From IMG/VR virus record IMGVR_UViG_2534682307_000021: 5,665 nucleotides of DNA, one strand, 5' to 3'. This document shows, in pieces, positions 103 through 1,677 of the stretch (position 1 is the stretch's first letter; each line of letters begins with the position of its first letter). Below the pieces are notes generated by a model, which saw only the letters and a list, made by a program, of their open reading frames with translations, was not told the origin of the DNA and ran no database searches. Origin of the DNA: a virus. Its lineage: Duplodnaviria > Heunggongvirae > Uroviricota > Caudoviricetes. The position numbers and the translations under genes are program-made.

Positions 103-591
103 ATGGCATTAACGACCAAAAAAAAGCGGTTTGCTGATGCGTTATCAAGGGGCGCAAATCCCACGGAAGCCGCTATACATGCGGGATACAGCGAAAAGAC
201 CGCAAGGGTTAAAGGCTGGCAGCTATCCAACGATCCTGAGGTGAAAAAGTATCTTAAGGCTGTAACTTCTGATGTAACTTTTCAGGTTACAAAACCGAAA
301 AAAGTTACAAAGAAAGTTACCGAAAAAGTTACACCGGAACGGGCATCAATTAACACCATTGAGATGATGGATAACGGCCTACCCGACCCCATCAAAGCAA
401 TGGGCAGGATACTGATTGACAACATGGACACAGATCCAAAACTGGCTTTAGATGCCGCGTTTAAGCTGGCCCAGTTCACCCACCGCAAGATCGGCAGCAT
501 TGGGAAAAAAGAGGTTAAAAAACTCAATGCCGCTAGTGTCTACTCAAATCGGTTCCCCATCCCTAAGCCACCAACAGACTTAAAACACTGA
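103..591 (+). CDS. Terminase small subunit-like protein (Terminase_2 / phage P27-type N-terminal DNA-binding domain), 162 aa
   Basis: ORF with GAGG RBS 6 nt upstream. N-terminus KKKRFADALSRGANPTEAAIHAGYSEKTARVKGWQLSNDPEVKKYLK fits the conserved TerS HTH pattern (KQxRF..EY...N.T.AAI.AGYS.KTA....LL.N..V..YI) as I recall it. Size is typical for TerS. Not verified by a search. Confidence 0.7.
   Translation: MALTTKKKRFADALSRGANPTEAAIHAGYSEKTARVKGWQLSNDPEVKKYLKAVTSDVTFQVTKPKKVTKKVTEKVTPERASINTIEMMDNGLPDPIKAMGRILIDNMDTDPKLALDAAFKLAQFTHRKIGSIGKKEVKKLNAASVYSNRFPIPKPPTDLKH
262..334 (+). repeat. Array of six GTTAC/GTAAC cores at 12-bp phase inside the terS-like gene (two inverted, four direct; three full AAAGTTAC[A/C] iterons at 301, 313, 325)
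   Basis: Cores at 262, 274 (GTAAC), 286, 304, 316, 328 (GTTAC); spacing 12,12,18,12,12. Encodes a (x-V-T-x)n stretch AVTSDVTFQVTKPKKVTKKVTEKVTPE. Last iteron AAAGTTACACC (325-335) matches the upstream copy at 71-81. Confidence 0.55.
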
Positions 592-602
592 GGTAGCGAA
601 CT

Positions 603-764
603 ATGAGCGAATACATCACAGACCCTATTGATGTACTCACGGAAATCATGAACGACAAGCAGCAGTCGACCGAAATACGGTTACAGGCCGCCGCTGTTCT
701 GATGCCATATTTTCACGAAACACTAAACCCGTGCTTCCAGGAGGAGGAAGAAGATGATCTGTAA
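603..764 (+). CDS. Hypothetical small acidic protein, 53 aa (MSEYITDPIDVLTEIMNDKQQSTEIRLQAAAVLMPYFHETLNPCFQEEEEDDL); not in the supplied ORF track
   Basis: ATG 603 is 9 nt after GAGG (590-593). The ORF is open to TAA 762-764 and overlaps the next gene start (754) by 11 nt, suggesting translational coupling in a terS-X-capsid operon. No family recognised. Confidence 0.4.
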   Translation: MSEYITDPIDVLTEIMNDKQQSTEIRLQAAAVLMPYFHETLNPCFQEEEEDDL

Positions 765-1677
765 AAACATGAAAGGCGTGTCAGCAGTTCGCGCCGCCAG
801 CGTGCTGGCATCGTGTAAATTTAGCCATGCTGACGCTATAGAGATGACGAAAAGAAATGATCCGGCAGTATCGAAATTTCTTGAAAAATCCATCGTCAAC
901 AGAATGACTACGGATAACATGCCGTCGCTGGTGGCAGAGCCGATAGTAAGAGAGCTTGGCGAGTATATTTTTTCGCAGTCTGTACCAGGCAAGCTAATCA
1001 GCAGCGCGCTTAATCTTCCGTTTGGCGCAAAATTGCATTCAATATCAGGCAAGGGTAGTAAATGGCTTAAAGAAGCCGAAGAAATCCCTGTCAAAGAGGG
1101 AGAAGTAAACGAAAGTGCGCTAAAATTGTGCAAACTTGGCGCTATTGTGATGCTGAATAACGAGCTAATCAAATTTAGCACCCCTGGTACAAATTCAGCG
1201 ATCAGAGACTTGATCACATCGGAATCGGTGAAAGAAATAGATAAAAAATTTCTTTCCAGTGATCAGGAGGTGGCTGGCGTATCCCCTGAGGGCGTGCTTA
1301 ATGGTGCTGATGAGGCCGAAAACTTCATAGAGATTTTCAAAAAGCACATAGCGAACGGTAACACGCTTTCCACGTCGTCGCTAATATTGCCCGTAGAAAA
1401 CGCCTTACAGCTTACTGATGCTGAGTTCTGGCAGATAGAGCTTTTGAGAATACCGGTAATTGTGAGCGAACAGGCGGATCGCATGATGCTGATAGACGCT
1501 CAAAAGCTGATTATTAACGTTGAAGCCACGGTTATAACCCCAACTGATGAGGCGGTAATAAAAACCGAATCAGGGGCGGTTAGCCTTTTCCAGAATGACG
1601 CTACAGCGTTCAGGGCAATCACCTATTGCGGATGGCAAAAACTCGATAAGGCCGTCACCGTTCTGGCGAAAAGCTGA
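754..1677 (+). CDS. HK97-fold major capsid protein-like (Phage_capsid family), 307 aa, no N-terminal delta/scaffold domain
   Basis: Strong RBS AGGAGGAGG (739-747) 6 nt before ATG 754; in-frame alternative ATG at 769. Middle segment WLKEAEEIPVKEGEVNESALKLCKLGAIVMLNNELIKF and C-terminus GAVSLFQNDATAFRAITYCGWQKLDKAVTVL follow the conserved layout of HK97-family capsid proteins (compare recalled 80alpha-type YWVGEGQKIE...AFKLGVILPVTKEF and PVNLFEQDMVALRATMHVAL...AFAKL). Recognition from memory, not a search. Confidence 0.6.
   Translation: MICKNMKGVSAVRAASVLASCKFSHADAIEMTKRNDPAVSKFLEKSIVNRMTTDNMPSLVAEPIVRELGEYIFSQSVPGKLISSALNLPFGAKLHSISGKGSKWLKEAEEIPVKEGEVNESALKLCKLGAIVMLNNELIKFSTPGTNSAIRDLITSESVKEIDKKFLSSDQEVAGVSPEGVLNGADEAENFIEIFKKHIANGNTLSTSSLILPVENALQLTDAEFWQIELLRIPVIVSEQADRMMLIDAQKLIINVEATVITPTDEAVIKTESGAVSLFQNDATAFRAITYCGWQKLDKAVTVLAKS

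Follow-up and report, generated by a model that had tools for sequence, protein, structure and literature searches.

Several small proteins acting on the packaging machinery of bacteriophages have been described, both in phage satellites and in phages themselves. The Rpp proteins (RppA, RppB and RppC; 144–153 amino acids) encoded by cos phage-inducible chromosomal islands (PICIs) found in Escherichia coli, such as EcCICFT073, mimic the DNA-binding domain of the λ-type small terminase subunit (TerS) and form with TerS a heterocomplex that redirects packaging to the island (PMC6739421). Other satellites pair a terS gene of their own with a small inhibitor of the helper terminase. This is the case of Ppi, which binds and blocks the helper TerS, in the pac-type pathogenicity islands of staphylococci (SaPIs) (summarized in 10.1101/2022.09.08.507074). 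In the phage-inducible chromosomal island-like elements (PLEs) of Vibrio, the small protein Gpi acts on the helper packaging motor alongside satellite-encoded packaging specifiers and binds the large terminase subunit, TerL (PMC11417361). TerI, a protein of about 65 residues belonging to the TERi system of Listeria phage phi10403S, binds TerS and blocks packaging (10.1101/2025.02.27.640495). Here, we analyze a gene of 53 codons carried by a stretch of viral DNA of 5,665 nucleotides (nt), hereafter the window (IMG/VR record IMGVR_UViG_2534682307_000021, Caudoviricetes). This gene occupies positions 603..764 of the + strand, between a terS gene and a capsid-like gene of a satellite integrated in E. 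coli, and we refer to it and to its product as mini.

By its profile matches, mini is a stand-alone paralog of the TerS oligomerization hairpin, devoid of the DNA-binding domain. In the TerS proteins of phages PaP3 and NV1, residues 64–105 form the α4–α5 hairpin that, together with a β-strand at residues 107–121, builds the oligomerization core of the nonamer; beyond this core comes a disordered tail of acidic character (PMC7672466). No description of a hairpin paralog adjacent to terS was found in the literature searched; the homology of mini to this hairpin and its strict linkage to terS across phages and two satellite architectures are new here.

Compared with TerS of the Terminase_2/phrog_641 type (PaP3, 6W7T; NV1, 7JOQ; Bacillus phage SF6), mini has a hairpin with the same invariant positions (DP..L..MND......R..AA..L), is likewise encoded in the packaging module and ends in an acidic disordered tail as PaP3 TerS does. 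It differs by the lack of the helix-turn-helix (HTH), of the β-barrel strand and of the basic GKKE...KF...PP tail, by its size (53 residues against 130–220) and by being an extra gene placed after a complete terS. Like Rpp, mini is a PICI protein resembling part of TerS; Rpp, however, mimics the winged HTH of the λ Nu1-type TerS whereas mini mimics the oligomerization hairpin of the Terminase_2 type, and the island studied here lacks Rpp and carries its own terS. The likeness to Ppi, compared by description only, lies in being a small protein of a satellite endowed with its own TerS, but Ppi is satellite-specific, whereas mini is also present in complete phages beside their own terS. TerI shares with mini its small size and its encoding by a phage, and it controls packaging through TerS; the terI gene, in contrast, is placed antisense within the early lytic module, its expression takes place in lysogeny and two anti-TerI immunity proteins are required, whereas mini directly follows terS in the late packaging operon, and no relation of TerI to the TerS fold has been reported. 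Gpi differs from mini by its TerL target, by showing no sign of a TerS-like fold and by an unrelated helper family. Scans of Pfam and PHROGs with mini gave no Ppi-, TerI- or Gpi-type match, no direct comparison to those sequences being made. Mini may work like Ppi, TerI or Rpp; its origin, its gene position and its occurrence in autonomous phages set it apart from them.

A STAND-ALONE TerS HAIRPIN

The PHROGs profiles assign mini to phrog_641, 'terminase small subunit' (E 3.5e-7, profile positions 89–125 of 162), which is also the family of the adjacent terS (E 1.5e-43). The other PHROGs touched by mini are without known function and the Pfam scan returned no match, PF03592 included. A tblastn search of 50,697 phage records produced 24 weak matches, 20 of them inside genes annotated as small terminase subunit; one more falls in the GenBank copy of Bcep176 gp80, annotated as TerS in its RefSeq copy, which brings the count to 21 of 24. 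The alignment by hhalign of 20 minis with 16 TerS proteins reached a probability of 98.5% (E 4e-15) and paired mini residues 1–46 with TerS residues 88–135, a segment encoded in the window at positions 364..507 (+). Between individual sequences the relation is faint: BLASTP of mini against the island TerS found no match, and it was seen only by profiles and by Smith–Waterman alignment with shuffling, where the score of 41 against this TerS segment was reached by 7 of 2000 shuffles. The z-score of the window mini was 4.5 (marginal) against its own TerS hairpin and 1.2 (not detectable) against the TerS hairpin of the putative helper phages introduced below. The best sequence match in the PDB is NV1 TerS (7JOQ residues 81–101, VVLEIMNDPNEKGGIRLKAAQ, E 0.043).

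The AlphaFold2 (AF2) model of mini, with a predicted local distance difference test (pLDDT) score of 76, consists of a helix (residues 8–16), a loop, a second helix (23–41) and a disordered tail; pLDDT is 91–92 at residues 11–30, averages 50–55 at 41–53 and drops below 50 at 49–51. The two helices map onto the hairpin helices H96–105 and H112–126 in the AF2 model of the island TerS. A Foldseek search of the PDB with the mini model gave nothing significant (all E >1), a hairpin of 40 residues being too small for a fold search; NV1 and PaP3 TerS appeared only at ranks 4 and 11 (E >1).

The hairpin core, supported by conserved columns, AF2 helices and the PDB match, spans D7–H38 (DPIDVLTEIMND......IRLQAAAVLMPYFH; positions 621..716, +). 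Its invariant or near-invariant columns are D7, P8, L12, M16, N17, R26, A29, A30 and L33, and the motif common to the profile matches reads DP..FL..VMND.......RI.AA.ALMPYFH. These matches were sorted into three classes. In full TerS proteins, a Terminase_2 HTH and a linker precede the motif, and a basic GKKE...KF...PPKL tail comes after it; HTH-less proteins have a GGRPxG arm before the motif and end in the same type of basic tail; and the stand-alone minis, of 40–75 amino acids, nearly all have an acidic end. Among the features that define a TerS, mini has the hairpin and lacks the other two, the N-terminal HTH and the C-terminal region with its β-strand and a basic tail presumed to contact TerL, only 15 residues ending in EEEEDDL following the hairpin, and for this reason it is not filed as a TerS. 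Named database members of the mini family are all 'hypothetical protein' with the exception of one Zoogloea 'terminase small subunit, partial'.

Two other groups of proteins carrying the motif deserve mention; loci and proteins are designated by their working labels (L and P). HTH-less TerS-like proteins of 70–140 amino acids are made of a GGRPxG-type basic arm or nothing, the hairpin and a basic GKKE...PP tail (L153 289–504, L250 9581–10000, P0044, P0051, P0064, P0109 and P0110), and the L153 protein (71 amino acids) is encoded directly upstream of terL. A family of 175–500 amino acids displays a basic N-terminal arm (MPRGSKPGERRGGRQ), two tandem hairpin motifs with a linker, and a DDPFGF region (P0022, P0030, P0033, P0035, P0036 and about 15 more; loci L238 and L239). 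These double-hairpin proteins were considered as Rosetta-stone fusions; the retrieved contigs are too short to reveal a terminase context.

LINKAGE OF mini TO terS IN PHAGES AND SATELLITES

About 140 further loci were gathered via the mini profile and exact-protein look-ups, and each occurrence of the motif was classed by whether an in-frame stop bounds it. This yielded about 25 distinct true minis in hosts or elements of Escherichia, Serratia, Pseudomonas and Burkholderia type. Except for one locus discussed below, every mini for which upstream sequence is available directly follows a gene of the terS family. In the 25 distinct mini–TerS pairs, mini starts 0–12 nt past the terS stop: the gap is 8–12 nt in an enterobacterial clade (GC content 0.45–0.51) and 0 nt in a GC-rich clade (0.55–0.60), where the stop codon abuts the ATG.

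The gene that follows mini is a capsid-like gene (307–331 amino acids) in E. coli, Serratia and related satellites, and terL in L013, L014, L030–L034 and L112. Retrieved with long flanks as L166, the L032 locus is a complete temperate siphophage encoding a DnaB helicase, holin, HNH, TerS, mini, TerL, portal, ClpP protease, major capsid protein (MCP), adaptor, head closure, neck, tail terminator and tail tube; complete HK97-like phages carrying mini present the order HNH-TerS-mini-TerL-portal-protease-MCP-connectors-tail. A PICI of Pseudomonas serbica (L250) comprises int, AlpA, primase/helicase, an integrase-like gene, capsid, a 67-amino-acid open reading frame (ORF), TerS and mini, the TerS that precedes mini being of the HTH-less arm type. 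L017 has the same order from capsid to mini, with the capsid gene upstream of terS, and continues with unrelated genes.

Because the upstream terS is constant and the downstream gene varies, mini goes with terS rather than with the capsid gene and is not satellite-specific; the overlap between mini and the capsid gene is local to enterobacterial satellites. The location between terS and a capsid gene, on which an original prediction made from the window sequence had relied, is thus accurate for the window and for enterobacterial satellites but does not extend to other elements, where terL, defense-like cargo or unrelated genes come next. The two partners also diverge together, mini–mini and TerS–TerS identities being correlated (rho 0.43). 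The closest non-island relative of the pair, with TerS 59% and mini 57% identical to those of the window, is the phage-type module of L013 (TerS, mini, TerL and S78 protease), whose head architecture is that of Stx-type phages.

Several of these loci show additional features. In the chromosome carrying the P. serbica PICI (OZ336862.1; L250 10506–15132), mini is directly followed by an AAA_15/SMC_N ATPase gene, a 242-amino-acid partner gene and an Abi_2 gene, which look like anti-phage defense cargo in an accessory region at the end of the PICI. A tyrosine-integrase-like protein of 430–463 amino acids (phrog_1) is encoded 3.4–4.8 kb upstream of mini and of the HNH-terS module in GC-rich phages (L161, L165, L166 and L196, at about 3.1–6.8 kb of each); in L250, which also has a terminal integrase, such a gene (6282–7580) immediately precedes the capsid gene. 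A Serratia fonticola contig (NODE_13, 136–160 kb; L003/L004) carries two satellites in tandem, both with a terS, a mini and a capsid-like gene, inside a prophage late operon in the order TerL_nuclease, S78 protease, integrase, second island, Phage_capsid and portal, an arrangement that looks like the helper-embedded satellites of PMC10111431.

A CONSERVED GENE WITH AN ACIDIC TAIL

Homology and conservation both mark the mini ORF as a real gene, already annotated and uncharacterized. The original prediction had described it as unannotated; RefSeq/PGAP, however, holds it as hypothetical protein WP_000006076.1, listed in the best 25 of the 220 E. coli genomes that carry the module. The predicted geometry was otherwise read again from the sequence: a plausible ribosome-binding site, an ATG at 603, a TAA at 762–764, a product of 53 amino acids (MSEYITDPIDVLTEIMNDKQQSTEIRLQAAAVLMPYFHETLNPCFQEEEEDDL; isoelectric point 4.05; 13 acidic vs 2 basic residues), an acidic C-terminal tail EEEEDDL (741..761, +) that AF2 predicts to be disordered, and an overlap of 11 nt (754–764) with the capsid-like gene, whose ATG is at 754. 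The Shine–Dalgarno sequence GAGGT of mini (591..595, +) is located 7 nt upstream of the ATG and coincides in part with the terS stop codon (589–591), and an in-frame stop at 594–596 leaves space for only two codons upstream of the mini ATG. The GGAGG of the capsid-like gene (743..747, +; 6 nt before its ATG) is encoded by codons E47–E49, and in E. coli the tail codons of mini thus double as the Shine–Dalgarno sequence of the next gene. The length of the ORF is by itself unremarkable since the window holds 54 ORFs of at least 30 amino acids; it is homology, position and conservation that uphold the claim of a genuine, translationally coupled small satellite gene.

Close homologs of mini were retrieved with E values from 1.8e-26 to 1e-8, the E. 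coli copies being 74–98% identical. A 54-amino-acid ortholog in Serratia aquatilis occupies the same place between TerS and a capsid homolog 45% identical to that of the window, and S. fonticola islands with a different replication module also carry mini. An exhaustive search of 1.84 billion proteins with the mini profile returned 108 matches. The original prediction had named conservation of the reading frame and the ratio of nonsynonymous to synonymous substitution rates (dN/dS) as checks: the frame is kept across genera, and dN/dS among eight distinct E. coli module sequences is 0.20–0.22 for mini (0.14 for terS and 0.15 for the capsid gene), values that indicate purifying selection. Defective minis were seen in only two forms: a frameshifted copy (L111/P0008) and, in one lineage, an altered, non-acidic 3' end (L034 type). 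Two metagenomic contigs depart from the E. coli module, L106 (a food metagenome contig) by an internal stop in terS and L111 (OBYO01001005.1) by its frameshift in mini; they are either rare decayed modules or assembly errors.

Past the motif, 22 of 25 distinct minis carry a net charge of −3 to −9, opposite to that of the cognate TerS tails (+4 to +8 in 15 of the 15 that could be scored). An acidic end was found in 50 of the 67 retrieved motif proteins of at most 70 amino acids, the remainder being mostly fragments of other classes or frameshift variants. The view of the acidic tail as a mere by-product of the downstream Shine–Dalgarno sequence was rejected as sole explanation: minis of the phage clade, whose next gene lies 25–114 nt away, still end in an acidic tail, which argues that acidity is selected for its own sake.

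Two simple scenarios for the origin of mini were discarded. Mini is not the C-terminal half of a split terS: in every alignable pair a hairpin-like segment is still present in the upstream TerS and the scored tails are basic, the match to the hairpin being partial and limited to the second helix in TerS of the L017/L030/L031/L112/L113 type. Neither is it a recent duplicate of the adjacent terS. Over 35 core columns, mean identity amounts to 56% between minis, 38% between mini and its own TerS hairpin and 35% between mini and other TerS hairpins; minis thus form an old, maintained lineage, their mutual likeness exceeding that to the respective TerS.

NEIGHBORING GENES, ISLAND AND HOST SITE

The terS gene of the island (103..591, +) encodes 162 amino acids (PF03592, E 1.4e-10). 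Its product is composed of a Terminase_2 HTH (residues 1–59), a disordered linker of KVT repeats (60–95), the hairpin (about 96–126) and a basic tail (GKKEVKK...RFPIPKPP); the AF2 model (pLDDT 78) shows the HTH at 5–59, the disordered linker, both hairpin helices and a tail helix. A 9-mer, AAAGTTAC(A/C), is found in two copies just upstream of terS (56–81) and in about six copies of both orientations inside terS (258–339), where it encodes the KVT...KVT repeats of the linker; related TerS proteins possess analogous peptide repeats (KVNK in P0034 and P0081). These repeats may be a TerS recognition site (pac/cosB-like) within the terS gene. The capsid-like gene (754..1677, +) encodes 307 amino acids of HK97 fold (PF05065, E 1.3e-6; phrog_617 positions 386–610 of 626).

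This TerS is 46–49% identical overall, and about 70% in the hairpin and the beginning of the tail, to TerS of Stx1a-, Stx2a- and Stx2c-converting phages and other lambdoid prophages of enterohemorrhagic E. coli (EHEC). The gene order of these phages is HNH, TerS, TerL, a fused protease-scaffold-capsid protein of 645 amino acids, and portal; the capsid-like protein of the island aligns with residues 290–625 of the fused protein, its C-terminal capsid part. A search of genome contigs with the capsid-like protein found one locus, and a search of viral contigs with the capsid alignment found only the same E. coli islands. Stx-type phages with a phrog_641 TerS are likely the helpers of the E. coli island.

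The left 1.7 kb of the window forms the 3' terminus of an island measuring about 9.4 kb, and the right half of the window is E. coli DNA with clpS (2656–2976), clpA (to 5283) and the serW region at the end. In the O157:H7 strain FRIK2455, the island is inserted between cspD/yljB and clpS and its genes lie on one strand: integrase, a hypothetical gene, HTH regulator, Icd-like, small ORFs, DUF4222, a primase-family gene, three small ORFs, terS, the 53-amino-acid ORF and a 'phage major capsid protein' gene (integrase at 9270–10493 and primase at 13190–14944 in L001). The gene content of the FRIK2455 island includes no lysis or tail genes. With this unidirectional gene order, its size of about 9.4 kb, its integrase, regulator, primase and packaging genes and its specific site, the island has the architecture of a PICI-type phage satellite. 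It is not EcCIEDL933, a capsid-forming PICI that was considered and turned out to be a different element. At an identity of at least 95%, 220 of 5426 complete E. coli genomes contain the terS-mini-capsid module, and E. coli islands with the terS-mini pair sit at two chromosomal sites. Promoter and terminator scans detected nothing above chance inside the operon.

Repeats abound in the non-coding region that separates the capsid-like gene from clpS (1690–2400): there are three copies of the palindrome CCCGATATGGGGATCACCATATCGGG (1692, 1810 and 2336), an 88-nt direct repeat at 1718–1805 and 2255–2342 (95% identical), and repeats of 47–72 nt at 1846–2152. They could be cos, ori or att elements or the remnant of a tandem insertion. 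Downstream of clpA/serW in FRIK2455, a second integrative element starts right after the right end of the window (L001 21803–33700) and carries integrase, an IS1 remnant, YfjI, inovirus Gp2-like and KAP NTPase genes.

POSSIBLE FUNCTIONS OF mini

We consider, with a probability of about 55%, that mini is an accessory packaging protein acting with TerS. Its homology to the TerS hairpin and its linkage to terS in phages and satellites favor a role in packaging rather than in capsid assembly. An old paralog of the hairpin would have lost the HTH and the basic C-terminal tail of the family and gained a short, disordered acidic tail. Produced from the terS transcript through tight translational coupling, mini would bind its cognate TerS, either with its hairpin against the TerS hairpins in or on the ring, or with its acidic tail on the basic TerS tail, or both, and this binding would tune the assembly or the specificity of the TerS–DNA–TerL initiation complex. 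In a satellite, the terS-mini pair would constitute a two-part, satellite-specific small terminase steering the helper TerL and HNH to satellite DNA. This scheme builds on a real gene under purifying selection, on its homology to the TerS hairpin, on linkage to and co-divergence with terS and on tails of opposite charge, from which we infer TerS binding and an effect on packaging. A more specific version, in which mini would be a trans-acting subunit co-assembling with TerS through the shared hairpin into mixed rings or capped oligomers and the satellite pair would also poison the helper TerS ring, is put forward tentatively, with odds well below even.

A number of observations weigh against a packaging role with TerS. 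No stand-alone mini occurs in the 50,697 deposited phage records, nor is there one between terS and terL in the Stx-type phages, the putative helpers; this terminase type can therefore, in general, do without the protein. At one locus (L116), a lone mini is not preceded by a terS gene. Mini also lacks the β-strand that completes the TerS ring in PaP3 and NV1, and its co-assembly into a ring is therefore not guaranteed. Its motif moreover resembles HEAT/alphaRep repeats (E 0.15–1.9), long multi-repeat proteins being also among the matches, and may be a generic interaction module not specific to TerS. Finally, a family of about 260 amino acids, whose N-terminal part weakly resembles archaeo-eukaryotic primases (AEP; PF22548, E 8e-5, below the Pfam cut-off), has the TerS-hairpin motif at its extreme C-terminus, followed by only 3–7 residues (L114, L115, L123, L129, L144, L146, L152, L154, L156, L158, L160 and L202), and by this match the hairpin also serves as a module appended to a replication-type protein.

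Mini could instead be a poison or decoy of the Ppi, TerI or Gpi kind, its hairpin inserting into or capping the TerS ring of a competitor or helper, or its acidic tail blocking TerL or the DNA-binding surface, leaving the cognate TerS unaffected. An oligomerization element copied without the HTH corresponds to the classic design of a dominant-negative subunit, and the satellite inhibitors paired with a terS, like the phage protein TerI, provide precedents; the absence of mini from helper-type Stx phages leaves the island mini without a helper counterpart, and in the P. serbica PICI mini stands at the border of defense-like cargo. Proteins of this class are, however, encoded outside the packaging operon of the target phage, whereas mini lies inside the packaging operons of complete siphophages, between terS and terL and coupled to their own terS, where a partner fits better unless the cognate TerS is immune. 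The comparison of hairpins does not designate the helper TerS as a target either, since mini resembles it at chance level and its own TerS distantly. We regard such a decoy, although the main rival, as unlikely. Still less probable is a small terminase reduced to the hairpin and akin to the core of T4-type TerS, which would form its own ring and offer an acidic TerL-contacting tail missing from this basic-tailed TerS family. The acidic disordered tail of PaP3 TerS agrees with it, as do the HTH-less TerS-like proteins encoded directly upstream of terL (L153) or beside mini (L250), but the latter proteins have retained the basic GKKE...PP tail, mini always comes after a complete TerS, and most phages of this TerS family do without mini.

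The original prediction had suggested a capsid-assembly, scaffold or capsid-size-redirecting factor working with the downstream capsid-like protein. Satellites do encode small proteins that remodel capsids, and in enterobacterial satellites the capsid-like gene starts −11 to +11 nt after mini. This proposal is largely refuted by synteny and now very improbable: terS is the constant neighbor, terL comes next in phages at a distance of 25–114 nt, and in L250 and L017 the capsid gene precedes terS, the module ending with mini. Pfam and PHROGs scans revealed no similarity of mini to capsid or scaffold families, its sole homology being to TerS, and it thus has neither the homology nor the constant capsid-gene association of the size and scaffold factors CpmB, Sid, Ccm and Rcm. 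It is slightly harder still to credit that mini is a non-functional relic of a terS duplication or an ORF translated only to couple the downstream gene. The very short ORF, the tail codons serving as Shine–Dalgarno sequence in E. coli, the frameshifted metagenome copy and the lineage with a non-acidic end would suit such an origin, but the motif is conserved across Gamma- and Betaproteobacteria with a mean core identity of 56% between distinct minis, and both a dN/dS of about 0.2 and the greater likeness of minis to each other than to their own TerS (0.56 vs 0.38) point to an old lineage that has been maintained.

IMPLICATIONS FOR PACKAGING AND SATELLITE BIOLOGY

The mini family is small, has no Pfam model and bears no annotation beyond hypothetical. 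As a rule, small terminases are regarded as homo-oligomers encoded by a single gene, and a conserved second gene reduced to the hairpin and an acidic tail, coupled in translation to terS in phages and in two PICI architectures, would add a component to packaging initiation in HNH-cos phages. It would also point to a new route for satellites to capture the helper terminase. If the tentative mixed-ring version is correct, these phages would possess a previously unrecognized two-gene small terminase, and satellites would practice a new kind of packaging hijack by mimicry of the oligomerization element, as opposed to that of the DNA-binding domain by Rpp. Since the helper-type phages include Stx-converting prophages of EHEC, the function of mini would bear on the mobility of the island in O157-type strains.

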